This document shows, piece by piece, positions 3,361-34,270 of a stretch of 45,661 nt of DNA (its first letter is position 1; each line of letters starts with the position of its first letter). The DNA comes from Parcubacteria group bacterium. GTDB lineage: Bacteria; Patescibacteriota; Minisyncoccia; Moranbacterales; UBA2206. A program made the position numbers and the translations under genes. Below the pieces are notes generated by a model that ran no database searches, was not told the DNA's origin, and saw nothing but the letters and a program-made list of their open reading frames with translations. The stretch spans positions 1 through 45,661 of the forward strand of contig JBAZSS010000003.1 of NCBI GenBank assembly GCA_041662285.1, given 5' to 3'.

Positions 3361-3380
3361 TACTTGTCCGATTCGAATCA

Positions 3381-3440
3381 ACGAATGAATGCGAATCTAC
3401 GAATAAGAATTTGCAAATTCGTAGATTCGAATGTATTCGT
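3381..3440. repeat. TACGAAT/ATTCGTA palindromic intergenic repeat, copy 1 (hairpin in the mraZ leader)
   Basis: Perfect 13-bp arms CGAATCTACGAAT (3392-3404) and ATTCGTAGATTCG (3417-3429). The stem extends imperfectly to 3381/3440. Confidence 0.8.
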
Positions 3441-3457
3441 AAATTCGCATCGCGTTT

Positions 3458-3892
3458 ATGTTTATAGGTGAATACCAACATTCAATTGATCCGAAGAAAA
3501 GATTGGCGGTTCCAAGCAAATTTCGCAATGATTTGAAAAATAAAATTGTGCTCACAAAAGGTTTGGATAAATGTCTCATTATCTACCCAATGAAAGTTTG
3601 GCAAGAGCTGGCTGAAAAACTCGGAACATTGCCAATCGGAGAATCATCCACGCGAAGTTTTGTGCGCTCAATGTTGGCCGGAGCGGTGGATTGTGAAATC
3701 GACAAACAAGGAAGAATTTTGATTCCAGATTTTTTGAAAAGTTATGCTGATCTCGACAAAAATGTCATTATCGCGGGAGTGTATAACCGACTGGAAATTT
3801 GGGATGAAAAGAAATGGGAGGAATATAAGAATAACGCTGAAAAAAACACTGATGAGGTGGCAGAACAGTTGGGAAAGTTGGGAGTATATTAA
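3458..3892 (+). CDS. mraZ: Transcriptional regulator MraZ
   Basis: MFIGEYQHSIDPKKRLAVPSKFR plus a second DxxGR-type repeat (IDKQGRILIP). It is the first gene of the dcw block. Confidence 0.95.
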   Translation: MFIGEYQHSIDPKKRLAVPSKFRNDLKNKIVLTKGLDKCLIIYPMKVWQELAEKLGTLPIGESSTRSFVRSMLAGAVDCEIDKQGRILIPDFLKSYADLDKNVIIAGVYNRLEIWDEKKWEEYKNNAEKNTDEVAEQLGKLGVY

Positions 3893-3904
3893 TCAAAAAA
3901 CAAG

Positions 3905-3957
3905 AGACAAGGAACAAGAAACAATAAAATAAGAATATTGTTCATTGGTCATTGCTC
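3905..3957. repeat. Heptamer arrays in the mraZ-rsmH spacer: (NNACAAK)x3 and (ATTGNTC)x3 in inverted orientation
   Basis: AGACAAG GAACAAG AAACAAT at 3905-3925, and ATTGTTC ATTGGTC ATTGCTC at 3937-3957. Confidence 0.75.
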
Positions 3958-3970
3958 GCTGAAAGTTGCT

Positions 3971-4987
3971 ATGTCTGTTCATAAATCTGTACTGCTTAGG
4001 GAGACTATTGAATCGCTTAATCTGAAATCAGAATCTATTGTGGTTGATGCGACATTTGGTGGTGGTGGTCATTCGAAAGAAATTTTGAAAATAATAGAGA
4101 ATGGAAAATTGATTGGGATTGATGCGGATGAAAAAGCCATTGAAGAATCGGATTTGAAAAATGATGAGAGAGTGATTTTAGTTAATGATAATTTTGAGAA
4201 TTTAGAAAATATTTTAGAGAGAATCGGAATTAGAAAAGTTGATGCTATTTTGGCGGATCTCGGTTGGTCGAGTGACCAGCTTGTCGGCAAAGGAATGAGT
4301 TTCCAAGAAGATGAACAGTTGGATATGCGACTTTCTGAAAATCAAGAAATTTCCGCTAAGACTGTTGTTAATGAATATGAACAAAGAGATTTAGAAAGAA
4401 TAATCAGAGAAAATGGCGAAGAAAAATTTTGGAAAATTATTGCTAAGAGAATTGTTGAATATAGAAAAGAGAAAAAAATAGAAACGACTCAAGAATTGGC
4501 AGGCATTGTGAAAAATGCCATTCCAGAAAAATTCAGACATAGTAAATTGAATTTAGCCACCAAAACTTTTCAGGCTCTGCGAATTGAAGTTAATCAGGAA
4601 CTTGCGAATTTAGAAAAGTTTATCCCGCAAGCGATTGAAAGATTGAATTTAGGAGGGAGACTTGCGATAATTTCGTTTCATTCATTAGAAGATAGGATAG
4701 TAAAAAATATATTACGGGAAAATGCTAGGGGATGCATTTGCCCGCCTGCCTTGCAATTACAAATATTGCAGGAGAAATATATAAAAGCTGTAGAAAATAA
4801 TAGTCCCGATGCTGAAATTTTAGAAAAGGCATTGCGGGCAGGCCCACCGGACTTTCCACAGTGTGCTTGCGGAAAGAAACCGAAAATTGCAATCATCACA
4901 AAAAAGCCAATTGCGCCAACTGATTTGGAAGTTAGCGATAATCCAAAATCAAGAAGCGCCAAGCTTCGGGTGTGTGAGAAAAAATAA
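3971..4987 (+). CDS. rsmH: 16S rRNA (cytosine1402-N4)-methyltransferase RsmH
   Basis: HKSVLLRETIESL, DATFGGGGHS, SFHSLEDRIVK and NPKSRSAKLRV motifs. I prefer the ATG at 3971. The track ORF starts at TTG 3938 and reads through the heptamer repeat. Confidence 0.9.
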   Translation: MSVHKSVLLRETIESLNLKSESIVVDATFGGGGHSKEILKIIENGKLIGIDADEKAIEESDLKNDERVILVNDNFENLENILERIGIRKVDAILADLGWSSDQLVGKGMSFQEDEQLDMRLSENQEISAKTVVNEYEQRDLERIIRENGEEKFWKIIAKRIVEYRKEKKIETTQELAGIVKNAIPEKFRHSKLNLATKTFQALRIEVNQELANLEKFIPQAIERLNLGGRLAIISFHSLEDRIVKNILRENARGCICPPALQLQILQEKYIKAVENNSPDAEILEKALRAGPPDFPQCACGKKPKIAIITKKPIAPTDLEVSDNPKSRSAKLRVCEKK

Positions 4988-5038
4988 AGATAAATAAACA
5001 ATTTAAGCACATTTAATTTTCAGGGGGACTGAAATTTA

Positions 5039-5455: not shown

Positions 5456-5459
5456 TATT

Positions 5460-8661: not shown

Positions 8662-8730
8662 TTTAGAAAAAAATTTGGTGTGGAGTAAGAATTTCGGATT
8701 AGATGGGGGAGGCAATCCGAAAAAAGAAAA

Positions 8731-8766
8731 AACTCCGAGGTTCGCGCCTCGGAGTTTTGAGTTTTT
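8731..8766 (+). terminator. Rho-independent terminator after murF
   Basis: Perfect 10-bp stem AACTCCGAGG (8731-8740) / CCTCGGAGTT (8747-8756), followed by a T-rich tail. Confidence 0.8.
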
Positions 8767-8793
8767 GACCGCGAGGCATATTTAAAGTAGAAT
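8765..8793 (+). promoter_or_regulatory. Promoter TTGACC-17 nt-TAGAAT, with the ATG only 6 nt after the -10 (predicted leaderless mRNA)
   Basis: The -35 is at 8765-8770, the -10 at 8788-8793 and the ATG at 8800. Confidence 0.55.
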
Positions 8794-8799
8794 TGAAAT

Positions 8800-9303: not shown

Positions 9304-9418
9304 TGCTAGCGGTCCTTGCTAGGCTTAATTTAGAAGGAGGTAGGGAGGATTTGTTCTTATTGATCTTAATGAAAAGTGAAATTCCATTTTTTTCAACATT
9401 TAATCAGGGAGGATTTTT

Positions 9419-9808: not shown

Positions 9809-9852
9809 AAAAATCCCGAAAGCATTTTATTGCTGACGGGATTTTTGCTTTT
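9809..9852 (+). terminator. Probable terminator
   Basis: Stem AAAATCCCG (9810-9818) / CGGGATTTT (9837-9845), followed by TGCTTTTT. Confidence 0.5.
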
Positions 9853-9880
9853 TGACCTTAGTGTGTATTTAAAGTAGAAT
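9852..9880 (+). promoter_or_regulatory. Promoter TTGACC-17 nt-TAGAAT, with the ATG 6 nt after the -10 (predicted leaderless mRNA)
   Basis: The -35 is at 9852-9857, the -10 at 9875-9880 and the ATG at 9887. It shares the 16-nt TATTTAAAGTAGAATT with the 8765 promoter. Confidence 0.55.
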
Positions 9881-9886: not shown

Positions 9887-10453
9887 ATGGAAATAACATC
9901 AATTCAATTTGTCAAAGGAATCATTGGACCGGACAGAGCTTTGGAAAATAGTTTTCCGCAGGTGGCTTTTATAGGTCGTTCGAATGTGGGAAAATCGAGC
10001 GTGATTAATTCACTGACAAAACAAAAAAAACTAGCTCGAACTAGCGCGAATCCTGGGCGCACACAACAGATAAATTTATTTTTGATCAACAACGCTTTCT
10101 ATTTGTTGGATTTACCAGGATATGGCTATGCTAAAACTTCCAGAGAAAATCAAGTGGAACTCAAAAAAATAATTCGGGGCTATTTGTTCGAATCGACATA
10201 TAAACAAAAAAAAGTAGTGCTCATTATAGACGCCAGCGTGGGTCCCAAAGAAATTGATTTGGAAATGCTGGAACTTCTCAAAAAGAACAAGAAAAATGTG
10301 GTGGTTTTGGCTAATAAGGTGGATAAAATAAAACCTTCGCTTTATAAAAAACAATTTGAATACATTCAAGAAAAGATTGGTCCGCATCTGATTATTCCCT
10401 ATAGTGCCAAAAAAGATATCGGCCGTAAGGAATTGCTTCGAGAAATTTCATAA
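9887..10453 (+). CDS. engB: Ribosome biogenesis GTPase YsxC/EngB
   Basis: AFIGRSNVGKSSVINSL (G1), DLPGYGYA (G3) and NKVDK (G4) motifs. Length 188 aa. Confidence 0.9.
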   Translation: MEITSIQFVKGIIGPDRALENSFPQVAFIGRSNVGKSSVINSLTKQKKLARTSANPGRTQQINLFLINNAFYLLDLPGYGYAKTSRENQVELKKIIRGYLFESTYKQKKVVLIIDASVGPKEIDLEMLELLKKNKKNVVVLANKVDKIKPSLYKKQFEYIQEKIGPHLIIPYSAKKDIGRKELLREIS

Positions 10454-10480
10454 ACTGCCATTTGGCAGTTTATGATTTTT
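10452..10480 (+). terminator. Terminator overlapping the engB stop codon
   Basis: AAACTGCC (10452-10459) / GGCAGTTT (10464-10471), followed by a T-rich tail. Confidence 0.65.
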
Positions 10481-10526
10481 GAGAATTATGTTATTATAAA
10501 AAAGTAAAAAAATAAAAATAAAAAAT

Positions 10527-13500
10527 ATGCAAAAAAACAAAATATTCAAAAAAACATCCTCGCTGTTTTTTTTCTTGGCTATGATAATAATGTCTTTTGG
10601 TATATACCATTTGACAACAGCGGATGAATTTGATGAGGAAGAATATGACGAATGTGAAGAAAGTGATTGTGTTTGGGAAATTAGAGATGACGCAGTGCTG
10701 GAAAAAGGTGTCACGGTGCTCAATAAGTCAGTACGGATATATGAAGGAGGAACGCTCACTATAAAACCAGGCGCCAAAATTGAATTTGCAGATAGTTGCT
10801 GGGGCGAAAGCACGCAAATTTTTGTTTTGGGCGGTCGCATTGTTGCCAATGGAACAAAAGAAAATCCCATATATATTTCAAGACAAGGATATAATCATAT
10901 GAACACTTTGCTGTATTTTGCCAATGATATTTATGACGAAGATGGCAGAGTTTCTACACCCGAATCAACTTTTAGTTATGTGAAAATTTCTGGCGGAGGA
11001 ACGAGTCCCTATGACGGAGGCGGATGTATCGATGGTATTTGTCCAGCTTTTCAAAATATTTTTCGTTCTTTTGTGAATACTGCCTATGCGGATGATTATG
11101 GAGAACCGGCTCTTGGTTTCAAAGGCGGAAAATTACGCTTGGAAAATTGTCAATTTTCTGACAACTATGGACTGGATGTCAAAGTTGATTTGAGAGTAGA
11201 AAATGAAAATCAAGATGATAGTTTGAGAATCATCAATTCGAATTTTGAAAATAATATTAATAATATAGCTGTCGTTTCCGATATCCATGGTTCGCAGATA
11301 AATTCCAATCCCAATCTTTTGGATATGCTTGTTTTGCAAAATAATTGGTACGGCAGTCCAAGTGGTCCAAAGCTAAGTCCTTATGATGATAGAGAAGGAG
11401 AATTTTTAATCGGAGCTTCTGCTGTGGGAGGATTTAGTTCGACTCGCTGGGCACTGTTTCCCGATGGCAATGCTAATGTTTTGTTTTTACCAGGGATAAA
11501 AGCTAGCTATTTGTATAAATACGGATCTTCGGGAGAAGATCAGTTGTGGCCACCAAATTATTTCGGAGATGATGTGTCGGAATTGGCTTTGGATGAAAAT
11601 GGAGAAAGCCTTGAGGATGTTTATGCAAAAGATATCATTGAACAGCTTCCATTTATCGGGAAAAATATCTATAAATCTTTTGCAGAAAAACTGGCGGAGC
11701 TCAAAGAAAATCGAGATATTAATGACTACAGTCTTTTCGCCTATGACTGGCGAAGAAATGTGGAAAACATTGAAGTGATAGGAGAAATTGAAAGACTTGC
11801 CATAAACTCCCAAAACAAAAAAGTGACAATCATTGCCCATTCAAACGGCGGACTGCTGGCGAAAGATGCGATGCGAAAATTAGAAGAGATGGGAAGAGCG
11901 GATATAATAGACAAAATTATTTTCGTGGGCACACCGCAGATGGGGACTCCGCGAGCTATTCTTTCTCTGCTATATGGTTATGATGAAGATTTGGCGCTTG
12001 GTTCTCTTATGAGTCGTGCAGAAGCAAGAAAATTAGTGGAAAATATGCCGGGAGCTTATGGGCTTTTGCCATCAGAAGAATATCTCAATCGCCTAGAAGA
12101 ACCACTCATTGATTTTTTTTCTGGAGAAAGCATTGGAAAAGGGGACTTCGAAAAGTTTCAGAATTTTTTGACTGGCAAAATTGATGGACGAGAAAAGCCC
12201 GATGAGGATGAGGTGGAAAAGGAAAATATTTTGCGGGAAAATCTTTTAGATCAAGCTAGTCTCACTCACGAAAATTTGGATGAGTGGGAACCGCCGGAAA
12301 ATGTGAAAGCGATTCAAATTGCTGGGTGGGGATTGGATACTATAAGCGGAATCAAATATTCCCAGAAAGAAAAGGTTAATTGCTATTCGGCCGATGGGAA
12401 ACTGCCTTCTTGCGCTGGATCAGGCGAATATGAGCCAATTTATGAACCAAAATGGACGGTCGATGGAGACGAAGTAGTGACCGCTCCTAGTGCGCTGATG
12501 ATACCGGAAAAGGATAATAGTGTGGAGAAGTATTGGGTGGATTTGTGGTCTTATGATGATATTTTAACGACAGGGAGAAATCACGGAGATATTTTTGAAG
12601 TTTCTGATTTACAAGAATTTCTTGATAATATAATTAAAAATAAATATCAAAGCGAAGAATTGCCTGAAAATATTAAAAGATATCATCCTAATCCAGAAGA
12701 TTATAACGATGCCCAGCCGAGGATCCGAATGTCCCTCTATTCACCGCTCGACATTCATCTTTATGATGAAAGCAACAATCATACCGGACCAAAAGAAATT
12801 ACGGATGAAAATGGCAACAAAAAAATAATTTTTGAAGAAGAAATTCCTAATAGTTATTACCAGCAATTTGGTGAGCGAAAATATGTCGGTTTTTCCGAGG
12901 GAGAAAAAATTCGAATTGAACTCGAAGGATATGCTGATGGAGCTTATACTCTCAAATTGGAAGAAGTCGCTTTTGCCGAAGCGGGTGAAGAAATTATTTC
13001 GCATACCTCCTTTGTCAATCTGCCGGCTTCAAAAGATACTAGTGCTAAGTTGGAAATTTCTGAAGCGGGACTAGCCAACCTTTCGGAACTTCAGGTTGAT
13101 TTTGACGGGGATGAACAAGTTGATTATTCAGTAATACCTGTGCCTAATGGCGAAGCGACGCTAAGCAGTGACGAAATTTTGCCAGAAATCATAATCTCCA
13201 GCCCACAAAACAAAACCTATCCAGGAGATACAAATTTGGAAATTGTTTTTTCAGTAAGTGATAATATTTCTCAGCCCGAAAACATTCCAACTGAAACATA
13301 TCTAGACAATGAAAAAATTTCTACCAGAACTATTGATCTTTCAAAACTTATCCCAGGAAAACACACCCTCAAAATATCAGCTATGGATGAAGCAAACAAC
13401 AAAGTCGAAAAAGAAGTGGAATTTTCAGTGACAATGAATCTCAATATTTTCCAAAACAATGTAGAAAGATATTATCAATCAGGGCTAATCAAAACCAAAG

Positions 13501-14250: not shown

Positions 14251-14301
14251 AGAGGAAAAGAGGTAGAATATAGATAGTCAAAGGGTTGGCCAGGGATAAA
14301 G

Positions 14302-14310
14302 TTATCCACA
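14302..14310 (+). promoter_or_regulatory. Perfect consensus DnaA box TTATCCACA
   Basis: Exact 9-mer, 9 nt upstream of the -35 of the R-M promoter. Confidence 0.3.
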
Positions 14311-14319
14311 GCGGAGGAG

Positions 14320-14383: not shown

Positions 14384-15232
14384 ATGGAAACAAATTTACT
14401 TATTGCTATTGCAAATTTAGTTAAAAATCCAATTACAAATTTAGTTTCTCATTATAGTGCCACCAATCGGGCTAACCATATGGGCGACGCTTTAGAATTT
14501 TATATCAAAGATTTATTTTGCAACTCGCTAGATGAAAACAATCTTGAAAAGAAAAATGAAATTTACAGTAAATATTTTTCCTATATCGGAAATCAAAATA
14601 ATCCACCAGATATTATTATCAAACAAGGCGACGCAATAGAGGTAAAAAAGATTGAAAGTTTGCGTTCGGGAATTGCGCTTAACAGCTCTTATCCAAAAGA
14701 TAAGTTGTATTATGATAGTCCGATGATAACTACGGCTTGCAGAAATTGTGAAGATTGGAGAGAAAAAGATTTGGTGTATATTGTTGGCGTTTCAAAAGAC
14801 GATAAATTAAAAGCGTTATGGCTTGTTTATGGCAATTGCTATTCAGCAAGTAAAGAAGTGTATGAGAGAGTAAGAGATAAAATTTCAAAAGGCGTCAATG
14901 AATTGCAAGACGTTGAATTTTCAGAAACCAATGAGCTTGGCAGGGTCAACAGAGTTGATCCGTTAGGGATAACTTATTTGCGTATTCGTGGAATGTGGGG
15001 CATTGAAAATCCTATCAAGGTTTTTGATTATGTTGTTTCGACAGAGCAAAATTCTGAATTTTTTGTTAATGCAATTTTGCTGAAAGAAAAATATTTGTCC
15101 TTTCCAGAAAAAGACAGAAAAAATCTTGAGAATTTAGTTGGTGCTAATTTTTCAATAAAAGATATAAAAATAAAATCGCCAAACAACCCAGCAAAACTGC
15201 TGGAAGCGAAGTTATTGAGTTTTAGAAAATAA
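14384..15232 (+). CDS. Type II restriction endonuclease candidate (PD-(D/E)XK; partner of the GGCC-type methyltransferase; NgoPII/HaeIII-like by size and context)
   Basis: PPDIIIKQGDAIEVKK fits PD...(D/E)xK. Its stop is 1 nt before the m5C methyltransferase start. Length 282 aa. Confidence 0.6.
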   Translation: METNLLIAIANLVKNPITNLVSHYSATNRANHMGDALEFYIKDLFCNSLDENNLEKKNEIYSKYFSYIGNQNNPPDIIIKQGDAIEVKKIESLRSGIALNSSYPKDKLYYDSPMITTACRNCEDWREKDLVYIVGVSKDDKLKALWLVYGNCYSASKEVYERVRDKISKGVNELQDVEFSETNELGRVNRVDPLGITYLRIRGMWGIENPIKVFDYVVSTEQNSEFFVNAILLKEKYLSFPEKDRKNLENLVGANFSIKDIKIKSPNNPAKLLEAKLLSFRK

Positions 15233-15233
15233 T

Positions 15234-16214
15234 ATGAAATTAGCTTCTTTATTTACAGGTGCGGGTGGATTAGATTTAGGTTTTGAAAGAGCTGGTTTTC
15301 ATGTTGTTTGGGCAAATGAATATGACCCTACAATTTGGGAAACATTTGAGCATAATTTTCCTAAAACAAAATTAGACAAAAGAAGTATTGTAGATGTTCC
15401 AGCGTCTGAAATTCCAGATGTTGACGGAATAATCGGCGGACCACCATGTCAGAGTTGGAGTGAGGCAGGAGCTGGTCGCGGAATAAATGATAAGAGAGGG
15501 CAGTTGTTTTATGACTATATCCGTTTGTTAAAAGAAAAACAGCCAAAATTTTTTCTTGCAGAAAATGTTTCAGGTATTCTACACCCAAAACACAAAGAAG
15601 CATTTTCAAACATAATCAAAGAATTTGAAAATGCTGGCTATGAGATTTCATGCAAATTACTAAATGCAAATGATTATGATGTCCCAGAAGATAGACTTCG
15701 CGTTATTATTGTGGGTTATCATAAAAGACTAAAAAATAAATTTGAATTTCCAGAGCCACAAAAATACAAACCAGTGTTAAGAGACGCTATTTTTGATTTG
15801 CGCTTGGCAAAGCCAGCAAAGGATAAAAACAAGACAAATGGTGATGAACTAAAAATTCCAAACCATGAATATATGAATGGTGGTTTTTCTTCAATTTATA
15901 TGTCAAGAAATCGAGTGCGTTCATGGGATGAACCTTCTTTCACAATTCAAGCTGGCGGTCGCCATGCTCCAATTCACCCGCAAGCACCAAAAATGAAATT
16001 TATAAGCCAAAATGAAAGAATTTTTGTTCCTGGCAAAGAAAATTTATATCGTCGCTTATCTGTTCGTGAATGTGCAAGAATACAAACATTCCCTGACGAT
16101 TTTATTTTCAAATATCGTGATATTGCTGATGGATATAAAATGATAGGAAATGCAGTTGCAGTAAATTTTGCTCATCATTTAGCGAAAAAAATTTATGAAG
16201 ATCTGAAAATATAG
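15234..16214 (+). CDS. DNA (cytosine-5)-methyltransferase, M.HaeIII-like (probable GGCC specificity)
   Basis: FTGAGGLDLGF (motif I), GGPPCQSWS (IV), ENV (VI), QTFPDDF and GNAV (IX/X). The variable region DKNKTNG..PNHEY..MSRNRVR.W.EP.FT.QA.GR...HPQAP...LYRRLSVRECARIQ resembles M.HaeIII as I recall it. Confidence 0.93.
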   Translation: MKLASLFTGAGGLDLGFERAGFHVVWANEYDPTIWETFEHNFPKTKLDKRSIVDVPASEIPDVDGIIGGPPCQSWSEAGAGRGINDKRGQLFYDYIRLLKEKQPKFFLAENVSGILHPKHKEAFSNIIKEFENAGYEISCKLLNANDYDVPEDRLRVIIVGYHKRLKNKFEFPEPQKYKPVLRDAIFDLRLAKPAKDKNKTNGDELKIPNHEYMNGGFSSIYMSRNRVRSWDEPSFTIQAGGRHAPIHPQAPKMKFISQNERIFVPGKENLYRRLSVRECARIQTFPDDFIFKYRDIADGYKMIGNAVAVNFAHHLAKKIYEDLKI

Positions 16215-16280: not shown

Positions 16281-16913
16281 ATGTCAAAAAAAACAAAAAA
16301 AGAGGTGGTCGTAGTGAAAGAACTTTCGCAAGGCGAGTTGCAAAAGTTGGCACATTCTGGCACAAAAGAAGCTATTGAGAAAATTGAAAAATATATCAAA
16401 ATAGAAAAAGATTATGATAAGCGTGCTTATGCCGAAATGGCTCTGGAAGAGTGCGAAATGTTTTTTTATCAACCAAAAAACGAAAAAGAAGATGAAGAAT
16501 TTACATTGAGCGAACTAATTAGAAGAAAAGAGCGCTATATCGATGACCAAACAATGAAAATGTGTGATATCAAAGAAAGAATTGAGAAGTTGATGTTGGA
16601 GAAAAAAGTGCATGAAAAAGTTTTGGCAAAACACAAAAACAAAAAAGAAGAATGGAAATATAATTGGATGCAAGATTTTGTGTCGATGGAAGAAAACGAA
16701 TTGCATAAAATTGAAGAAGACCTCGGATATGACGAAGCTTGGGTGGCTGAGGCTAAAAAAATGATTACTACTGCTCGGTATAAGAATATGCCAGCTCGCC
16801 AGCTCGGACATTTCAATTTCAACTTTGGCGAAGATTATTTTGATGATGAAAAAGATGATTGTGATTGTGAAAATAATTGTGATTGCGAGGATGTTTTTAA
16901 GGGGATGGTATAA
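16281..16913 (+). CDS. Hypothetical acidic coiled-coil protein with a Cys/Asp-rich tail (210 aa)
   Basis: Long ORF with charged helical sequence. The C-terminus DDEKDDCDCENNCDCED is encoded by repeated GATTGT units. Confidence 0.55.
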   Translation: MSKKTKKEVVVVKELSQGELQKLAHSGTKEAIEKIEKYIKIEKDYDKRAYAEMALEECEMFFYQPKNEKEDEEFTLSELIRRKERYIDDQTMKMCDIKERIEKLMLEKKVHEKVLAKHKNKKEEWKYNWMQDFVSMEENELHKIEEDLGYDEAWVAEAKKMITTARYKNMPARQLGHFNFNFGEDYFDDEKDDCDCENNCDCEDVFKGMV

Positions 16914-16935
16914 AATAAAATACGAAAATATAATT

Positions 16936-17709
16936 ATGTCTGAATATTATAAAGCCAATCGAACTAGAAATATTTATGATCCAAAAAGCGGGGAGGCTTT
17001 CAAGCTGTCGCGGTCGAGAATTGAAAATTTTATGCATTGTCCAAAATGTTTCTATTTGGATCGAAGGCTGGGAATTGGCCAGCCACCGGGATTTCCGTTT
17101 AATTTAAATTCAGCAGTGGACAAACTTTTGAAAAAAGAATTCGACATTCATCGAGCCAAAAAGATTGCTCATCCACTCATGAAAGCTTATGGACTTTCAG
17201 CCGTACCATTCCAACACAAAATGTTGGATGAGTGGCGAGAAAATTTCAAGGGCGTGCAGTTTTATCACAAACCGACTAATCTCATCATTACGGGCGCCGT
17301 GGATGATTTGTGGCAAGATGAGAATGGAGAAATCATTGTGGTTGACTACAAGGCTACAAGCAAAGATGCGAAAGTGTCACTGGATGCCGATTGGCAAGAT
17401 GGATATAAGCGACAAATGGAAATTTATCAATGGTTACTACGAAAAAATGGCTTGGATGTTTCCAATACCGGATATTTTGTCTATTGCAATGGCAAAACAG
17501 ACAAAGAAGCTTTTGATGCTAAATTAGAATTCGATATTGATTTGTTGCCATATACCGGCGATGATTCTTGGGTGGAAAATACTTTATTGGAAATCAAAAA
17601 ATGTTTAGACGGCGAAATGCCACAACCAGACAAGGATTGTGATTTTTGTAACTATCGAAAAGCAGTTGGGGAAATAGAAAATGAATTGCAGAAAAAACTA
17701 ATATTTTGA
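16936..17709 (+). CDS. PD-(D/E)XK nuclease, Cas4/RecB-like with four-Cys cluster
   Basis: N-terminal CPKC, GAVDDL, VVDYK, QMEIYQWL (QxxxY) and C-terminal C..CDFC. I prefer the ATG at 16936. The track ORF from 16825 overlaps the upstream gene. Confidence 0.75.
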   Translation: MSEYYKANRTRNIYDPKSGEAFKLSRSRIENFMHCPKCFYLDRRLGIGQPPGFPFNLNSAVDKLLKKEFDIHRAKKIAHPLMKAYGLSAVPFQHKMLDEWRENFKGVQFYHKPTNLIITGAVDDLWQDENGEIIVVDYKATSKDAKVSLDADWQDGYKRQMEIYQWLLRKNGLDVSNTGYFVYCNGKTDKEAFDAKLEFDIDLLPYTGDDSWVENTLLEIKKCLDGEMPQPDKDCDFCNYRKAVGEIENELQKKLIF

Positions 17710-21328: not shown

Positions 21329-21385
21329 GATGCGAAACTACGAATGACATGCGCCTGCCTGCCGGTAGGCAGGAATCTACGAATA
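21329..21385. repeat. TACGAAT-family intergenic repeat, copy 2
   Basis: GCGAAACTACGAAT at 21332-21345 and GAATCTACGAAT at 21373-21384. They flank a GC hairpin CCTGCCT (21354-21360) / AGGCAGG (21367-21373). Confidence 0.75.
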
Positions 21386-22908: not shown

Positions 22909-22915
22909 TTAAAAC

Positions 22916-23010
22916 CGATGCGAATCTACGAATTCGATGCGAATCTACGAATAATCTTGAGGGATGATTCGCATGTCCGGCATTCGTAGCGCCGGTTCGC
23001 GAAGCGAATA
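22916..23010. repeat. TACGAAT-family intergenic repeat, copy 3 (19-bp tandem duplication plus inverted partners)
   Basis: CGATGCGAATCTACGAAT at 22916-22933 and again at 22935-22952. GATTCGCAT is at 22966-22974, ATTCGTAG at 22982-22989, and a CCGGC/GCCGG stem at 22977-22995. Confidence 0.8.
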
Positions 23011-26985: not shown

Positions 26986-27144
26986 CTAGACAAAGGAGCT
27001 TATTTAGGGCGTAATAAATAGATAATTTTAACTTCTTAATAATTATTTCTCTTAATTATTTTTTAAAAAATTAAAAAATAATTTAGCAAATTAATTTTTT
27101 TCATAAATATTTTTATAAAAAAGAAATAATTTATTTTTTTCACC

Positions 27145-27153
27145 TGTGGATAA
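27145..27153 (-). promoter_or_regulatory. Perfect consensus DnaA box (TGTGGATAA on the plus strand)
   Basis: Exact reverse complement of TTATCCACA. It adjoins a ~150-bp run of almost pure A/T. Confidence 0.3.
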
Positions 27154-27163
27154 CTTTTTTCTA

Positions 27164-27322: not shown

Positions 27323-27418
27323 ATGGCAGCAAAAAAGAAAGCAGCTAAAAAAGCTACAAAGAAAAAAGCTACAAAGAAAGTAGCAAAAAAGAAAGCAACA
27401 AAGAAGAAAAAGAAATAG
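27323..27418 (+). CDS. Unannotated 31-aa lysine/alanine-rich ORF (histone H1/Hc-like AKKA repeats)
   Basis: ATG at 27323 and TAG at 27416-27418. Translation MAAKKKAAKKATKKKATKKVAKKKATKKKKK. GGAAGGTGA lies 7 nt upstream and a strong terminator lies downstream. It is below the ORF-track length cutoff. Confidence 0.5.
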   Translation: MAAKKKAAKKATKKKATKKVAKKKATKKKKK

Positions 27419-27516: not shown

Positions 27517-28398
27517 TTATATCTCAAAGATAGCAACGCGCCATTTTTGGGCTAAATCTTTTCGAAATTCAATATGGGCATTAGGAAAATATTTTCTGAT
27601 TAATTTTGCAATTTTTTGTTTTTGTTCAGGACTTATTTCAAGAATCAACGAACAATGATCAATGATCAATGAGATATTTTTTATTTGTTTAAATAATTTT
27701 TCATAATGATCAAGTCCATCGATTCCGGAAAGTAGAGCGGACTTTGGTTCAAAGTTTTTTACATCAGGCATCGCTTCAGAATAAATTTTTTTCGAAAGAT
27801 AGGGGAGATTGGCAATTACAATGCAGTGATTAGTAATCAAGGAACAATGATCAATAAAATATTTTAGTAAATCAGATTTAATAAATTTGATTTTATTGTT
27901 AAGTTTATGAATTTTAGAATTTTTTTTGGCAATAGCCAATGCTTTTTCTGAAATATCAATTCCGAAGTATTTAATTTTATTACTGTTCATTGATTGTTGT
28001 TCATTGTTCTTTGCGATAGACATAATTATATTTCCACTACCGGTTCCAATATCGATAATTGTTTTATTTTGCGGATTCAATTTTAAAACATTTTCAACTA
28101 ATAGTTCTGTCTCTGGGCGGGGAATCAAAGTATGCTTATTTACCTTAAAATTAAGGCCGTAGAACTCTTTTTGACCGAGAATATAGGCAATTGGTTCATA
28201 GTTCAGTCTTCTTTTGATAAGATTAGTGAATTTCGCGACTTGCCTAGAGGTTAATTCTTTTTCCAGATGAATCATCACATATTCTCGAGGTTTTTTGAGA
28301 ATAAAGCCGAGCAAAAGCTCCGCATCAAGTTGCGGAGTTATAATCTTCTTTTCTTTTAGTTTTTCGATTGATTCAGCGAGAATCTGATTTATATTCAT
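27517..28398 (-). CDS. prmC: Release factor glutamine N5-methyltransferase PrmC/HemK
   Basis: IDIGTGSGNI (SAM motif I), ANLPY in place of NPPY, and a HemK N-terminal domain. It lies immediately downstream of prfA. Confidence 0.88.
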   Translation of the reverse strand: MNINQILAESIEKLKEKKIITPQLDAELLLGFILKKPREYVMIHLEKELTSRQVAKFTNLIKRRLNYEPIAYILGQKEFYGLNFKVNKHTLIPRPETELLVENVLKLNPQNKTIIDIGTGSGNIIMSIAKNNEQQSMNSNKIKYFGIDISEKALAIAKKNSKIHKLNNKIKFIKSDLLKYFIDHCSLITNHCIVIANLPYLSKKIYSEAMPDVKNFEPKSALLSGIDGLDHYEKLFKQIKNISLIIDHCSLILEISPEQKQKIAKLIRKYFPNAHIEFRKDLAQKWRVAIFEI

Positions 28399-28409
28399 CT
28401 CTTCTTAAT

Positions 28410-29477
28410 TTAAATTTTCCCCAATTTTCTTTTCGCATCTTCCTCTTGTAGGACAACCATCATTTCGTCTAAATTTCCTTCAAGGATAGATTTAATATTA
28501 CTCCAGCTTTGTTTTATGCGATGATCGGTGATGCGATCTTGTGGAAAATTGTAAGTGCGGATTTTTTCACTGCGGTCACCCGTACCAATTTGCGATTTTC
28601 GTGCGTCGCCAAGTTCTTTGGCTTTTCTTTCATCTTCCAACTGCAAGAGACGAGAGCGCAAAACTTTCATAGCCTTTTCTTTATTTTTGATTTGGGATTT
28701 TTCATCTTGGCAAGAAACTATAAGGTTAGTCGGAATGTGAGTGATGCGCACAGCGGATTTGGTAGTGTTGACGGATTGTCCTCCAGGGCCGGAAGAACAA
28801 AAAGTGTCAATTCTGATGTCTTTTTCTTCTATTTTTAAATCTACTTCTTCTGCTTCCGGCAAAACTGCCACAGTAGCGGTAGAAGTGTGTACTCGGCCAT
28901 TTTTTTCCGTTTCAGGAATTCTTTGCACGCGATGCACCCCAGATTCATATTTCATTTTTTCATAGACATTATTTCCATTAATTTCAAAGACAACTTCTTT
29001 ATACCCACCAATCCCGATGACATTGGAATTGAGAAGTACGGTGCTCCAACGATTTTTTTCCGCATATTTAGCATACATTTGAAAAAGATCTCCAGCAAAA
29101 AGAGCCGATTCATCTCCACCGGCGCCAGCCCGAATTTCCACGATAACATTTTTGTGGTCATTAGGATCCTTAGGAAGAAAAGTTTTTTCTAATTCTTTTT
29201 CCAAGAGGGCCTTTTTTGCGCTCAGGGTGACATTTTCTTCCATAGCCATTTGTTTCATTTCTGGATCTTCTTCAGCGGAATTGATAATCACAGCATTCTC
29301 TGCCATTGCTTTTTCCATTCTTTCCAATGCGTTTATATTCTCCATCGTTTCTGAGAGTTCAGCTTGTCTTTTGCCAAGTTCGCCCATCTTCTTGGCATCA
29401 CTAAAAATATCCGGGCTATTAAGCTCAGTGGAAATTTCCTCATATTCTTTCCTAATTTTCTCGATTTGTTCTTTCAT
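28410..29477 (-). CDS. prfA: Peptide chain release factor 1
   Basis: [11 protein letters not shown] (GGQ) and PET-containing tripeptide region (RIPETEK). Length 355 aa. Confidence 0.97.
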
Positions 29478-29481
29478 AACA

Positions 29482-29560
29482 CTACGAATTACCCGCCTCG
29501 ACTCGCAAGGTGATTGTTCGTCGACGCGAGGCGGGCGAATTTATACAAATTTACGAATAT
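29482..29560. repeat. TACGAAT-family repeat, copy 4 (directly upstream of prfA on the minus strand)
   Basis: CTACGAAT at 29482-29489, GCGAAT at 29535-29540 and TACGAAT at 29552-29558. They flank a 9-bp GC stem CCCGCCTCG (29492-29500) / CGAGGCGGG (29527-29535), which encloses GATTGTTCG. Confidence 0.75.
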
Positions 29561-29692
29561 ACAAATCCCAGTTTTTTTGTTATAATTAAACTATAAATTA
29601 AGTGTATATAATATTTGCAAAATTAGCAATATTTAGCTGATTAAGTTAGTAAGGATAATTTTAAACTCATATTTACAAAGCTATCGAGAAGG

Positions 29693-30112: not shown

Positions 30113-30271
30113 TATGCGGATAAATAAAAAAAGACCCTCCGCTAAGTGTGGTGTATAAACCACGGCCGAAAGCCTTTTTCTATATATAATACTACCAGAT
30201 TCTGGAAATATGTCAATAGCGAAATAAATGGCTCAAAAAAGCCAAAATAATCCAATAATAATCAAAATTTT

Positions 30272-31198: not shown

Positions 31199-31203
31199 AT
31201 CTT

Positions 31204-31246
31204 TACTAATTACTAATTAAGTACGAATATACTAATAAAATTCGTA
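31204..31246. repeat. Heptamer repeat block, copy 5: TACTAAT x3 and a TACGAAT/ATTCGTA hairpin
   Basis: TACTAAT at 31204-31210, 31211-31217 and 31230-31236. TACGAAT at 31222-31228 and ATTCGTA at 31240-31246. Confidence 0.7.
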
Positions 31247-31253
31247 AAAAATT

Positions 31254-32498
31254 ATGAAGTATCTAAAAAACCAAGACAAGGAAGTTTATAGAGCAACAAT
31301 GGGGGAATTAAAACGCCAGCAGGAAGGTATGGAAATGATTGCGAGTGAAAATTATGTGTCAGAGGCAGTGCTTGAAGCACTGGGATCTGTTTTTACCAAT
31401 AAATATAGCGAAGGTTATCCAGGACATCGCTATTATGGCGGTCAAGAATATACGGATGTGGTGGAAAGTTTGGCCATTACTCGAGCGAAAAAACTTTTTG
31501 GCGCGGAGCATGTGAATGTTCAGCCACTTTCTGGCGCACCGGCTAATATGATTGCATATAGTGCAGTTCTCCAGCCAGGAGACAAGGTTCTAGGCATGGA
31601 TTTGGCACACGGCGGACATTTGACGCATGGTCATCCTGTGACGCTTTCTGCTAAGATATATAATTTTGTGCGTTATAAAACAGATGCTTCAGGGAAAATA
31701 GATTATAAAGAATTGGAAAAAATGGCCATTAAAGAAAAACCAAAAATGATCCTGGCTGGTTTTTCCGCTTATACAAGACAATTGGATTATAAGAAATTTC
31801 AAGCTATTGCCAAAAAGGTTGGAGCAATCACGATGTTTGACATCGCTCACATTGCTGGACTAATTGCTGGCAAAGCTCTTCCAAATCCAGTGCCATATTT
31901 TGATATCGTCACCACCACAACTCACAAGACTTTGCGTGGTCCACGAGGTGGAATGATTATGTGCAAAGAAAAATATGCCAAGGCCATTGACAAAGCTACT
32001 TTCCCAGGATTTCAGGGTGGACCGCATGAAAATAATATTGCCGCCAAAGCCGTGGCATTTGGTGAAGCTTTGAAACCAGCTTTCAAAAAATATGCTGTGC
32101 AAACTATAAAAAATGCCAAAATTTTGGAACAAGAGCTGAAAAAATATGGATTTGACATTTGTTTTGGAGGAACGGATAATCATATGGTTCTAGTGGATGT
32201 TTGGGGCTCAAAGGGCGTGAGCGGAAAAGAGGCGCAAGAAGCCTTGGACGAAATTGGAATTTCACTTAACAAAAATATGATTCCCAATGACACAAGGAGT
32301 CCAATGGACCCAAGTGGGATTCGCATTGGTGTGCCAGCCATCACCACGCGTGGAATGAAAGAAAAAGAGATAAAAATTATTTCCAAGTGGATAAAGGATG
32401 CAATTGAAAATAAGGATAATAAAAAAGAACTAAAGAAAATTCACACTGAAGTAATCAAGCTTTGTAAGAGGTTTCCGATTTATAAAAATTTAAAATAA
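31254..32498 (+). CDS. glyA: Serine hydroxymethyltransferase
   Basis: SENYVS, GYPGHRYYGG and TTTTHKTLRGPRGG (PLP lysine) motifs. Confidence 0.97.
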   Translation: MKYLKNQDKEVYRATMGELKRQQEGMEMIASENYVSEAVLEALGSVFTNKYSEGYPGHRYYGGQEYTDVVESLAITRAKKLFGAEHVNVQPLSGAPANMIAYSAVLQPGDKVLGMDLAHGGHLTHGHPVTLSAKIYNFVRYKTDASGKIDYKELEKMAIKEKPKMILAGFSAYTRQLDYKKFQAIAKKVGAITMFDIAHIAGLIAGKALPNPVPYFDIVTTTTHKTLRGPRGGMIMCKEKYAKAIDKATFPGFQGGPHENNIAAKAVAFGEALKPAFKKYAVQTIKNAKILEQELKKYGFDICFGGTDNHMVLVDVWGSKGVSGKEAQEALDEIGISLNKNMIPNDTRSPMDPSGIRIGVPAITTRGMKEKEIKIISKWIKDAIENKDNKKELKKIHTEVIKLCKRFPIYKNLK

Positions 32499-32502
32499 TA
32501 TT

Positions 32503-33300
32503 ATGAAAGGAATAATTCTCTCGGGTGGAACAGCGACAAGACTGTTTCCACTCACCGCGACAACTTCTAAGCAACTTTTTCCGGTTTATGACCGACAGAT
32601 GATTTTTTATCCGCTAAATACGCTCATTAAGGCTGGGATAAAAGACATTTTGATTATTGTAGCGCCGGAACACAGTGGGCAATATTTGAATCTTTTGGGT
32701 TCAATTTTTGAAAAATATGACATTCGTATTGATTTTAAAGTGCAAAAATTGCCAAAAGGCTTGGCGGAAGCTTTTGTTTTGGGTGAAGATTTCATTGATA
32801 AGGGCGATGTGGCGATGATTTTGGGGGATAATATTTTTGAAGATGATTTCTCTGAGGATATCAAAAATTTCAAATCTGGCGGGAAAATATTTGCCAAAAA
32901 AGTTTCTGACCCGGAGCGTTATGGCGTGGTGAAATTTGATGAAAATAATAAGGCGGTGGAAATTGTAGAAAAACCTGAAAATTGGATTAGTGATTATGCT
33001 ATTCCCGGACTTTATATTTTTGATAATCGAGTATCGGATGCAGCCAAAAATGTGACCCCATCCGAACGAGGAGAAAAGGAAATAACATCACTGCATAATT
33101 ATTATTTGGAAAAAGGAGAATTGGAAGTTAGTACATTTTCCGGCGCATGGTTGGACGCTGGAACATTTGACACTCTCCTAGAAGCTGGAAATATTGTCAA
33201 AGAAAAAGAGATTTACAAAAAATTTGATCCGATAATTGACAAAGCAATTTTGGAATTCAATGAAGAACTCAAAGCGATTGCCAAAAAAAGATTGATTTAA
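32503..33300 (+). CDS. rfbA: Glucose-1-phosphate thymidylyltransferase-like sugar nucleotidyltransferase (short RmlA)
   Basis: GIILSGGTATRLFPLT..SKQLFPVYDRQMIFYPL matches the RmlA N-terminal signature. Length 265 aa. Confidence 0.75.
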   Translation: MKGIILSGGTATRLFPLTATTSKQLFPVYDRQMIFYPLNTLIKAGIKDILIIVAPEHSGQYLNLLGSIFEKYDIRIDFKVQKLPKGLAEAFVLGEDFIDKGDVAMILGDNIFEDDFSEDIKNFKSGGKIFAKKVSDPERYGVVKFDENNKAVEIVEKPENWISDYAIPGLYIFDNRVSDAAKNVTPSERGEKEITSLHNYYLEKGELEVSTFSGAWLDAGTFDTLLEAGNIVKEKEIYKKFDPIIDKAILEFNEELKAIAKKRLI

Positions 33301-33316
33301 TATTTTAATTATATAT

Positions 33317-34186
33317 ATGCAAAAAATTAGAAAAGCAATTTTACCAGTAGCAGGTTTTGGAACGAGATTTTTGCCAGCTACTAAGGCTCAACCAAAAGAA
33401 ATGCTTCCGGTGCTAAATAAGCCGGCAGTGCAATATGTAGTAGAAAGTGTGGTAGCAGCTGGAATCGAAGAAATTATTTTCGTGACAGGTCGCGGAAAAC
33501 GTGCAATCGAAGATCATTTTGACATTGCCTATGAATTGGAGGATAAGTTAGCAGAAAAAAATAAAACAGATTTATTGGAAGAACTGAAAAAAATTCAAGG
33601 ATTAGCTAAGTTTTCTTATGTCAGACAATCTAATCAATTAGGAGATGGACATGCAATTCTTCAGGCAGCTCACTTGGTGGGAGATGAGCCAGTGGCGGTA
33701 GTTTTTGGAGACACTGTTTATGATAGTAAAGTTCCAATAGTGAAACAACTCATTGAAACTTATGAAAAATATCATGATCCTGTAATAGGCTTAACAGAAG
33801 TCTCTCGTGAAGATGTGCATAAGTTTGGTGTTTATACAGGTATTTCACTTGATAAAGAAACAATAGAAATAAAACAATTAATAGAGAAGCCAAAAAATGA
33901 AGAAGCTCCGGCACTGACAGTGGCAATTGGCGCATATATAATTACTCCAGAAGTTTTTAAGGTTTTATCTACAATTGAACATGGAAATTCTGGGGAAATT
34001 CGCCTGATTGATGCTTTTGAAATAATGATGAAAGAGGGAAAGCCACTTTATGGAAAAATTTTAGAAGGAGCTTGGCTTGATACAGGAGATCCTTTTAATC
34101 TTTTGCGAGTTAGTATTTATTTAGGTTTAAAACATCCAGAAATAAAAGATAAATTAAGAGCCTATTTAAAAACTTTAAAAATATAA
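33317..34186 (+). CDS. galU: UTP--glucose-1-phosphate uridylyltransferase
   Basis: KAILPVAGFGTRFLPATKAQPKEMLPV and VFGD motifs. Confidence 0.9.
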   Translation: MQKIRKAILPVAGFGTRFLPATKAQPKEMLPVLNKPAVQYVVESVVAAGIEEIIFVTGRGKRAIEDHFDIAYELEDKLAEKNKTDLLEELKKIQGLAKFSYVRQSNQLGDGHAILQAAHLVGDEPVAVVFGDTVYDSKVPIVKQLIETYEKYHDPVIGLTEVSREDVHKFGVYTGISLDKETIEIKQLIEKPKNEEAPALTVAIGAYIITPEVFKVLSTIEHGNSGEIRLIDAFEIMMKEGKPLYGKILEGAWLDTGDPFNLLRVSIYLGLKHPEIKDKLRAYLKTLKI

Positions 34187-34189
34187 ATT

Positions 34190-34267
34190 TACGAACTACG
34201 AAATAACGAAATTACGAACAAGAAATTTTTCGTATTTCGTATTTCGTATTAGATTCGTATTTCGTAA
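34190..34267. repeat. TACGAAN / TTCGTAT heptamer arrays in inverted orientation, copy 6
   Basis: TACGAAC at 34190-34196, TACGAAA at 34197-34203 and TACGAAC at 34213-34219. TTCGTAT is in perfect tandem x3 at 34229-34249, with further units at 34254-34260 and 34261-34267. Confidence 0.85.
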
Positions 34268-34270
34268 AAT

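Follow-up and report, generated by a model that had tools for sequence, protein, structure and literature searches.

The DNA considered here, referred to throughout as the window, is a stretch of 45,661 nucleotides (contig JBAZSS010000003.1 of assembly GCA_041662285.1) from a Parcubacteria group bacterium. The host is Candidatus Moranbacteria, within the Patescibacteria or candidate phyla radiation (CPR); its nearest relative by PrfA is 90% identical, and MraZ relatives of the same lineage names are 78-95% identical. Six spacers between genes of the window contain the hexamer TACGAA, the core of the heptamer TACGAAT and of its inverse, ATTCGTA. These spacers precede genes for MraZ, RmuC, a family 2 glycosyltransferase (GT2), PrfA, GlyA (serine hydroxymethyltransferase, SHMT) and a family 4 glycosyltransferase (GT4), and all six identities, proposed in a first-pass annotation made from the letters alone, are confirmed by Pfam. 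The elements stop 3-11 nt 5' of the mraZ, rmuC, GT2, prfA, glyA and GT4 starts, a closeness that the same annotation had recognized.

In our judgment the TACGAAT/ATTCGTA sites are probably repeat DNA, akin to the short tandemly repeated repetitive (STRR) sequences, repetitive extragenic palindromic (REP) elements and miniature inverted-repeat transposable elements (MITEs) of other bacteria, that is transcribed into long intercistronic hairpins. On this reading they are neither gene-specific operators nor replacements for a Shine-Dalgarno (SD) sequence. Many contigs, whether related or not, have the same TACGAAN units 5' of genes that are unrelated to one another, in keeping with the initial view that no single-pathway regulon is involved.

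TACGAAT units in the window

Within the window TACGAAT is present in 14 copies against 5.7 expected, a number that none of 100 shuffles attained, so that the motif does exceed its k-mer expectation. TACGAA is the hexamer most enriched between genes, with 20 of its 27 copies in the non-coding 8% of the sequence (genes being delimited from the list of open reading frames, ORFs) and just 7 in the ~42 kb of coding DNA. The first-pass annotation had centered on a 14-mer, GCGAATCTACGAAT, and its coordinates are all correct: the 14-mer lies at 3391-3404, 22920-22933 and 22939-22952, and close variants with 1-2 mismatches lie at 21332-21345 and 21371-21384. With as many as 2 mismatches allowed, the window has 8 matches, with 0.35 expected, and two inverted copies had been missed, at 3417-3430 and 3435-3448. 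The 14-mer is not, however, the basic unit; it is made of two heptamers, GCGAATC and TACGAAT, and the unit is the heptamer (T/A)ACGAAN. The idea of a DNA-uptake sequence was rejected, as TACGAA is rare in coding DNA, unlike the known uptake sequences (DUS/USS). A promoter was likewise considered and rejected: good sigma-70-like sites are found elsewhere, and the unit fits neither a -10 nor a -35 hexamer. No Rfam model matched the window at its gathering score.

The element is found in full form at two of the sites. In the mraZ leader it spans 3368-3453 and stops 9 nt short of the ATG at 3458. Its left arm consists of TCGAATCAACGAAT (3373-3386), gaat and GCGAATCTACGAAT (3391-3404), and after a loop of 12 nt its right arm consists of ATTCGTAGATTCGA (3417-3430), atgt and ATTCGTAAATTCGC (3435-3448). 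This is the stereotyped 2+2 layout described below, with core-to-core steps of 8-10-8 and 8-10-8, and the predicted fold has an energy of -34 kcal/mol (z -4.56). Upstream of the module are a promoter-like site, TTGACC-N17-TAAAAT (3294-3322), and two AAGTGGTGAA boxes (3340-3359), which, to judge from MraZ operators in general, are probably MraZ sites. As the module lies 3' of both, it is located in the 5' untranslated region (UTR) of mraZ. The second full module (34186-34270) fills the whole spacer between an NTP-transferase gene and GT4, ending 3 nt before the ATG at 34271. Four TACGAA(C/A) units make up its left arm (34190-34219), in the order TACGAAC TACGAAA TAACGAAAT TACGAAC, and after a 10-nt loop five TTTCGTA units form the right arm (34228-34267), most of which Tandem Repeats Finder (TRF) reports as an array of period 7 and 6 copies at 34228-34266. 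The fold is again well beyond shuffles (z -4.25).

The other four sites are reduced or differently built. The GT2 leader (22915-23010, + strand) has two tandem 19-nt boxes, GATGCGAATCTACGAATN (22917-22952), found by tandem-repeat finding as period 19 in 1.9 copies, followed by degenerate inverse copies GATTCGCAT (~22966), ATTCGTAGC (22982-22990) and TTCGCGAAGCGAAT (22995-23009); its fold is unremarkable (z -1.2), and it is a decayed module. In the glyA leader a minimal inverted pair, TACGAAT-N11-ATTCGTA, occupies 31222-31246 and ends 7 nt before the ATG at 31254; it offers a 7-bp stem whose fold is not significant (z -1.7). The rmuC leader (21332-21384, + strand) carries two direct copies, GCGAAACTACGAAT (21332-21345) and GAATCTACGAAT (21373-21384), between which lies a 20-nt GC-rich mini-palindrome, CCTGCCTGCCGGTAGGCAGG (21354-21373); this leader lacks TACGAAT in inverted orientation, and its spacer does not fold beyond shuffles (z -1.2). 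Finally, the prfA leader (29483-29558; the gene is on the minus strand and starts at 29477) has TACGAAT at 29483-29489 and 29552-29558 and CGAAT at 29536-29540. A 44-nt GC-rich palindrome, CCCGCCTCG...CGAGGCGGG (29492-29535), splits one of its units exactly, as ATTCG^TA on the prfA strand, and the strong fold of this leader (-37.1 kcal/mol, z -4.3) is owed to that palindrome and not to the TACGAAT units. The first-pass annotation had held that each site includes the reverse complement and can therefore fold into a hairpin. This stands firmly for mraZ and GT4 and weakly or in part for GT2 and glyA, but it fails for rmuC and prfA, where the units are direct and surround an unrelated GC-rich palindrome.

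Layout and folding of the module

The stereotyped module recurs in low-GC, CPR-like contigs as yC-TACGAAT-TACGAAT-N3-4-TACGAAT-N-TACGAAT, a loop of 10-55 nt, and the inverse arm ATTCGTA-N-ATTCGTA-N3-4-ATTCGTA-ATTCGTA-Gr. The conserved arms are ~33 nt long and the whole module 75-125 nt (alignment A1), with a near-invariant TACGAA core and a variable seventh base and spacers. A metagenome scan for two adjacent units with a third within 10 nt found at least 120 loci, of GC 0.31-0.69 among the matches listed, and viral contigs scanned in the same way also gave many; plain (TACGAAN)n arrays are therefore widespread. The half-module pattern had at least 31 copies in the metagenome loci listed, all but three of them in contigs of low GC (<=0.44), and none in 1.18 Mb of viral loci found with the same seed among the matches listed or in 1.07 Mb of controls. 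Steps between CGAA cores are almost exclusively 7 in contigs that are viral or of high GC; the CPR-like set and the lineage of the window have steps of 7/8 and 10/11, of which 7-8 nt is the commonest. The heptamer itself, as (TACGAAT)4, was present in 19 viral loci and two composition-matched control heptamers in 10 and 4, so that TACGAAT is commoner in viral contigs than control heptamers are but is not unique.

In the predicted fold of the module, a 3x3 or 4x4 internal loop separates an inner helix of 15 bp from an outer one of 14-18 bp, and energies range between -30 and -48 kcal/mol (z between -5.9 and -8.2); in silico, a putative transcript would thus contain a duplex of at least 20 bp around a small internal loop. 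Because the units repeat, RNAalifold paired the arms out of register, and a register set by hand and counts of pairs were used instead. In this register 89.6% of the cells of the alignment are paired, against 28-41% when the register is slid. Changes on both sides of a pair are seen in 12 cells, mostly in a 4-bp foot outside the conserved units, a number that a single one of 500 shuffles reached. From these counts the palindrome is seen to be kept up, be it at the level of DNA or of RNA. In 33 of 37 pairs of arrays the two arms also agree at the seventh base of the unit.

Trained on 12 modules in the hand-set register, the covariance model R1 gives CPR-like modules 55-90 bits and plain array hairpins of viral contigs 30-49 bits; it picks up new copies in one relative (L345) and nothing in the controls. 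The mraZ copy, which was part of the training set, scores 66.8 bits, the GT4 copy, which was outside it, 56.5 bits (E 7e-9), and the GT2 element only 22 bits (E 0.21).

Two further features of the units may be recorded here. The CG of the second and fourth units has repeatedly lost its G to another base, so that the unit reads TACTAAT or ATTAGTA. Roughly half of the modules, from different contigs (for example L171, L342, L344, L201 and L341), have a mismatch at the same two helix positions as a result (columns 15/121 and 34/93 of alignment A1). In the high-GC viral loci L236, L238, L246 and L248, TACGAAT arrays adjoin arrays of AGGAATT and GGGAATT. A GAAT(T/C) core is common to these viral arrays, the GCGAATC of the window and the GGGAATC of Xanthomonas, which hints at a wider set of related heptamers.

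A lineage-wide excess of heptameric repeats

The TACGAAN family belongs to something broader. Tandem repeats of at least 3 copies were collected with TRF from a lineage set consisting of the window and 22 Moranbacteria loci (~375 kb in all), and from controls fetched by the same query (1.04 Mb of loci, mostly Bacillota and Nitrospirota). Period 7 accounts for 57 intergenic arrays in the lineage set, and each of the other periods between 3 and 15 for 1-9. Period-7 density is 24.0 per 100 kb, compared with 1.6 in the controls and ~0.5 in Markov shuffles, and this enrichment of ~15-fold bears out the early suggestion of a REP-like or STRR-like dispersed element. The heptamer units differ from array to array (CAAGAAA, CATGAAA, TTGTTCC, GATCAAG, AATTTCT, AGCTTTT and others). 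Since the excess is lineage-wide and the units vary between arrays, TACGAAN is one family among many within a general heptamer-repeat phenomenon.

Three arrays of other units lie in the window, all on the + strand. (CAAGAAA)x5, at 3894-3928 between mraZ and rsmH, is of the same class of period-7 spacer repeats and is kept in L340, the nearest relative by MraZ (95% identity). An A-rich (ATAAAAA)x4.4 array (10496-10527) runs into the start codon at 10527. The third, (CATGAAA)x5.4 (43806-43844), lies directly 5' of an epimerase start at 43845, from which the Pfam match also begins, and its unit family recurs inside the prmC gene of L003 and in L013, L014 and L015. The ATGs within this last array generate a spurious upstream extension of the ORF (43821 instead of the real start at 43845), and the annotation of CPR genomes is affected more widely, as ATG-bearing arrays lengthen gene calls. 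Several MraZ homologues in the databases are 156-163 aa rather than 144 aa, 12-19 residues too long, and these overlong calls are possibly due to arrays of this kind.

Position relative to genes, starts and terminators

The arrays are found predominantly where genes are read in the same direction. In the Moranbacteria loci there are 1.24 period-7 arrays per kb of co-directional spacer, a count that includes some arrays really inside prmC, 0.36 per kb of divergent spacer and none in 5.2 kb of convergent spacer. The GT4, GT2 and rmuC elements occupy the entire 70-106-nt spacers between same-strand genes, and the hairpins leave 3-10 nt free after the upstream stop codon and 3-11 nt ahead of the start. 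That the elements lie so near to start codons is thus mainly a matter of geometry, because they fill short spacers; in the relatives, arrays adjoin stop codons as often as starts. One contig, L171, has three full modules inside a ribosomal-protein operon, between rpsH and rplF, rplN and rplX, and rpsC and rplP.

The first-pass annotation had set the six genes apart as SD-less, in contrast to others in the window, and had proposed a structured initiation region for them. The contrast is misleading. An SD-like site is found at 8 of 46 window starts and 38 (~83%) are without one, so that six SD-less genes out of six is a chance outcome (probability ~0.3) and, with SD-less starts the norm of the genome, the absence of an SD does not mark these genes. 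The hairpin might nonetheless replace the SD, or make initiation dependent on unwinding by a ribosome from the upstream cistron, and the tight spacing between stop, hairpin and start would suit this, as would the SD-like 3' foot (TAGGAG or TAGGGA, pairing with 5' CTCC) of modules in some CPR-like contigs. We nevertheless consider such a role very unlikely. Genes lack an SD whether or not they have an element, the window copies have no SD-like foot, and most starts are unpaired in the predicted folds. The elements moreover appear dispensable at orthologous genes, since relatives whose PrfA is 84-90% identical lack them in the GT4, GT2, glyA and prfA spacers, and the mraZ and prfA 5' UTRs have no upstream cistron from which a ribosome could come. 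As to initiation in this organism more generally, near-identical promoter-like sites, TTGACC-N17-TAGAAT, at 8765-8793 and 9852-9880 stop 6 nt short of the ATGs at 8800 and 9887, so close as to suggest leaderless mRNAs. Together with the 38 SD-less starts, these putative leaderless mRNAs suggest that initiation is mostly SD-independent.

Strong hairpins right after stop codons could also be terminators or attenuators that dispense with a U-tract. The module stems are AT-rich, no T-run follows any of them, and a terminator scan that requires a T-run does not call the module hairpins; within the elements it picks out nothing but a weak 6-bp stem (22995-23009). The organism has ordinary T-run terminators (3240-3266, 8729-8758 and 10448-10475 in the window), modules lie within a ribosomal-protein operon and 3' of the mraZ promoter, and arrays are absent from convergent spacers, where only terminators would be expected. 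Termination is accordingly a highly improbable role for the modules. From the location of the elements in 5' UTRs and intercistronic spacers, and from the absence of a U-tract, it follows instead that they are probably transcribed as long double-stranded hairpins.

Conservation and turnover at orthologous spacers

Presence at orthologous spacers differs sharply between sites. In most relatives the GT4, GT2, glyA and prfA elements are missing, and persistence was found only for the mraZ and rmuC leaders, in several of them. The GT4 element is confined to the window, with just 5-8 nt at the orthologous spacer in L003, L004 and L011. For GT2, L004 has a spacer of 4 nt, L003 a degenerate one and L010 one occupied by other heptamers, and the glyA spacer has GAACAAN and GATCCTT arrays in L003 and none in L004. 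The prfA arrangement is common to the window and L003 alone among the 22 relatives.

The rmuC leader has TACGAAN units in the window and in L003, L004 and L345, with 4-5 uninterrupted units in those three relatives. A full module is found at the same place in the mraZ leader of L342 (85% MraZ identity), L344 (83%) and L173 (69%); a remnant persists in L343, and there is none in L340 (95%), L341 (93%) or L345. Both L173 and L341 have a module between rsmH and the next gene, in the latter case with no module in the mraZ leader. The contigs that bear the module share just 38-69% identity with the proteins of the window, and those from metagenomes were placed taxonomically only from their low GC and distant protein matches. 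The module sequence is therefore older, or more mobile, than its positions.

Turnover of another kind, a change in copy number, would be expected of phase-variable contingency repeats that switch downstream genes, as heptameric simple sequence repeats (SSRs) do 5' of hmw1A in Haemophilus (PMC12721329). There is only a slight prospect that the arrays act in this manner, given that their units are imperfect and interrupted and that the downstream genes are housekeeping ones (prfA, glyA, mraZ, ribosomal proteins). Nor did array lengths differ, although other samples of this genome are 99.8-100% identical, without insertions or deletions, and such near-identity makes this a weak test of copy number.

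In-frame arrays, GC-rich palindromes and transposase genes

The repeats are not confined to spacers. The release-factor methyltransferase gene prmC (27517-28398, minus strand; assigned by Pfam) has in-frame heptamer arrays at three loop sites: 27642-27672 (SLIIDHCSLIL), 27823-27852 (IDHCSLITNHC) and 27983-28013 (KNNEQQSMNS). In L003, prmC (11155-12114) has a different heptamer unit at the same sites together with a 42-nt in-frame GC-rich palindrome that is translated, and period-7 arrays cluster most densely around prmC in the majority of relatives.

That palindrome is one of a family. CCCGCCTCG...CGAGGCGGG, of 42-45 nt, is found at four sites: the prfA leaders of the window and of L003, prmC of L003, and L010 (11365-11409). 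The copy in the L003 prfA leader (9942-9986) again splits a unit exactly, as ATTCG^TA, and that in L003 prmC (11934-11975) lies in frame between two TGTTTTA units. The 20-nt CCTGCCTGCCGGTAGGCAGG palindrome recurs in six relatives (for example L010, 13502-13521); in mraZ leaders that are otherwise collinear it is present in L340 and absent from L341. Both families of tiny GC-rich palindromes lie within heptamer arrays of differing units and vary in presence among close relatives, and in this they resemble very small insertion elements. Arrays within the reading frame of prmC and the exact splitting of units by GC-rich palindromes are signs of a mutational or selfish process.

It is conceivable, if unlikely, that the modules themselves are non-autonomous mobile elements of MITE type, or of the type of REPINs (REP doublets forming hairpins), with terminal inverted repeats built from heptamers and recognized by a transposase encoded elsewhere. 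The architecture would fit, with conserved inverted termini around a variable core within 75-125 nt in total and CTAC...GTAG ends, and so would the clean filled and empty orthologous sites and the three similar copies in the L171 operon. A relative, L345, also encodes a 222-aa protein at 15313-16042 that matches Y1_Tnp, a transposase domain of the type found in IS200 and in REP-associated tyrosine transposases (RAYTs), at 25.5 bits (Pfam cut-off 23). However, this gene is flanked on both sides by an identical hairpin, CTTCCAAGGTTGAACCTTGGAAG, of which a third similar copy lies inside the gene (15529), and not by TACGAAT. It looks like an IS200/RAYT-type unit unrelated to TACGAAT and is the only Y1-like gene found in the relatives, and for the window and the loci compared a RAYT link to TACGAAT was rejected. 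The 46 window proteins include no transposase by Pfam, and no Y1_Tnp. No clear target-site duplication is visible when filled and empty GT4 and GT2 sites are compared, the flanks being A/T-rich and the ends palindromic, and copies within one genome (L190) are diverged rather than near-identical.

In the window, an NgoPII-type restriction endonuclease and a C5 cytosine methylase are adjacent at 14384-16214 as a type II restriction-modification pair, and a PD-(D/E)XK nuclease gene follows at 16825-17709.

Proposed origin and effect of the elements

The anatomy of the sites, the period-7 excess, their distribution, turnover and predicted folding have been demonstrated above. The reading that we favor on these data, repeat DNA transcribed into intercistronic hairpins, would have the following form. 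Heptamer repeats occupy the DNA between genes, and occasionally the loop-coding parts of genes, in Moranbacteria and related low-GC CPR. They may have arisen by replication slippage in a 7-nt register combined with fold-back copying, or by copy-and-paste spread. They would be tolerated in transcribed spacers. At orthologous positions they come, decay and go, different heptamer units take the same spacer in different species, and tiny GC-rich palindromes insert into the arrays. Once transcribed, an element is predicted to form an interrupted duplex of ~30 bp, and such a hairpin could act as a barrier to 3'-exonucleases, as a substrate for RNase III, or as both, which would uncouple the fates of the neighboring cistrons. 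By analogy with REP and Correia elements and with the hmw heptamer-repeat hairpin of Haemophilus, which RNase III cleaves (PMC12721329), the elements would probably affect mRNA processing or 3'-end protection between cistrons.

Several observations weigh against this account. The TACGAA core and the 2+2 spacing are kept between organisms whose proteins are only 38-69% identical, and conservation of such depth is not predicted by pure slippage; it fits better a conserved binding factor or a long-lived mobile family. Four divergent lineages have the module at one and the same point of the mraZ leader, and four have its units in the rmuC leader; this persistence means that turnover is not uniform and that selection at these two leaders is possible. 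Nor did the data show a target-site duplication, a link to a transposase or a polymorphism in copy number, the only other copies of this genome being identical. As regards the RNA, the sense strand folds better in 5 and the antisense strand in 7 of 12 co-directional spacers that bear an element; there is no strand asymmetry of the kind that G-U wobble pairs would bring, and hence no sign of selection for a hairpin at the RNA level.

The main rival explanation takes up the first of these points, and holds that the 2+2 TACGAAT box is a true cis-signal, the binding site of a conserved CPR host factor such as a DNA- or RNA-binding protein or a nuclease, taken up again and again in leaders and intercistronic spacers for regulation or processing. 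A near-invariant core with a free seventh base and free spacers would be natural for a binding site, and the fixed 7/8-10/11-7/8 spacing is confined to low-GC CPR-like contigs, not being shared by viral arrays of the same heptamer. Half-modules that have no inverted partner lie directly before starts (that of rpmE in L010 and L026; others in L189 and L097), and lineages of 69-85% MraZ identity have retained the position in the mraZ leader. Against this, the downstream genes are unrelated, presence varies among close relatives at GT4, GT2, glyA and prfA, and the nearest MraZ relatives (93-95%) have no element in the mraZ leader at all. The orientation relative to the gene also varies, being TACGAA in the sense direction for rmuC and TTCGTA for prfA and rpmE, and no candidate protein was identified. 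A signal of this sort is possible but doubtful. We would put forward only tentatively its boldest version, in which the 2+2 quasi-palindrome is a CPR-wide 'punctuation' hairpin for RNase III or for a box-binding protein, and heptamers of the form NNGAATN share one mechanism. If that were true, the module would govern how mRNAs are processed, stabilized or translationally coupled in genomes from which most conventional regulators have been lost, and the NNGAATN repeats of Xanthomonas, cyanobacteria and many phages would have a single mechanism in common.

Relation to known repeat elements

Heptamer repeats, comprising STRR and their relatives, have to our knowledge been recognized for some 35 years without an accepted function or origin. 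Mazel in 1990 and Mrazek in 2007 reportedly described such repeats, namely the STRR of heterocystous cyanobacteria and the GGGAATC/GGGGAYT repeats of Xanthomonas and Nostoc. The intergenic DNA of many bacteria has an excess of heptameric SSRs, and those of Calothrix and Nostoc (STRR) and of Xanthomonas have been described, with inverted pairs in Xanthomonas and Nostoc (PMC4692102). The repeats of the window resemble them in their 7-nt tandem unit, their strongly intergenic location, their many unit families per genome, their conserved core with variable positions and their frequent pairing with an inverted array capable of forming a hairpin; the window variant GCGAATC is one base away from the Xanthomonas GGGAATC. 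They differ in their host, a CPR bacterium with a very small genome, in the in-frame arrays of prmC, and in the fixed 2+2 layout of the TACGAAN family, with steps of 7/8, 10/11 and 7/8, in place of plain arrays. In the strict sense they are not STRR, because the host is Candidatus Moranbacteria and not a heterocystous cyanobacterium, and the unit is TACGAAN and not STRR1-3. The repeats of the window lineage have no runs of G, and a G-quadruplex cannot therefore be a property common to heptamer repeats.

With REP elements, bacterial interspersed mosaic elements (BIMEs) and REPINs the sites share an extragenic, imperfectly palindromic nature, inverted doublets that form hairpins in single-stranded DNA or mRNA, a location in co-transcribed spacers and singlets resembling decayed copies (PMC3116915). 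Unlike REP and REPIN, their arms consist of heptamer repeats, no RAYT is encoded in the window, the Y1-like gene of L345 has another hairpin, and the CTAC/GTAG of the module lies in the stem rather than in a 5' single-stranded head. The Correia elements or NEMIS, ERIC and RUP are small MITEs that are co-transcribed and processed. The module is like them in its inverted termini of ~30 nt, short variable core, length of ~75-125 nt, filled and empty orthologous sites, insertion beside starts and inside operons, and predicted long double-stranded RNA; it is unlike them in that no target-site duplication or cognate transposase was seen and in being more deeply conserved than is usual for a MITE family. 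For the GC-rich mini-palindromes the closest comparisons are the small dispersed repeats (SDR) of Nostoc, reportedly described by Elhai in 2008, and the palindromic elements of Rickettsia. Like these, the mini-palindromes of the window are 20-45 nt long, vary in presence among relatives and can lie in frame; unlike them, they are of unrelated sequence and exist in a handful of copies, and their mobility is inferred from four to ten sites.

In phage T7, RNase III sites lie between the early genes. In Haemophilus influenzae, a hairpin formed by heptamer repeats in the 5' UTRs of hmw1A and hmw2A is cut by RNase III (PMC12721329). The module is comparable to both in having an interrupted duplex of more than 20 bp just 5' of a start, and to the latter in having heptamer repeats of a 5' UTR as a hairpin arm, here a putative one known from sequence. 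The Haemophilus arms differ in that the partner arm is a G-rich region and the number of repeats is phase-variable (PMC12721329). The literature searched contained nothing linking CPR taxa with heptameric repeats and nothing containing TACGAATTACGAAT. The kind of element is thus already known, as heptameric intergenic repeats and palindromic repeat elements; new, as far as this literature goes, are the density in a CPR lineage, the deeply conserved 2+2 TACGAAT module and the presence of in-frame arrays in prmC.

Arrays stand roughly 4 kb apart in a CPR genome that is ultra-small and streamlined, the ribosomal-protein operon and prmC included. Such a density implies either a strong and peculiar mutational process or real use, both of which are unexpected in pared-down genomes. 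The TACGAAT module is a concrete and easily synthesized object for RNase III cleavage, protein-binding and reporter assays.

Other features of the window

A tiny ORF at 27323-27415 (+ strand) has the strongest SD of the window and would encode a Lys/Ala-rich peptide of 30 aa (MAAKKKAAKKATKKK...). It lies within a 623-nt AT-rich spacer (GC 0.29) that also holds a DnaA-box-like motif. This motif, GTTATCCACAG, contains the DnaA-box consensus TTATCCACA and occurs at 14301-14311 (+) and 27144-27154 (-), with a near-copy at 3223-3233 (-); at up to 1 mismatch there are 3 occurrences in the window against 0.28 expected. One copy follows prmC, as it does in most of the Moranbacteria relatives, and in several of the Bacillota controls a copy lies ~3 kb after prfA. 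The near-copy is 5' of the mraZ promoter, and similar sequences are found in L342-L345.

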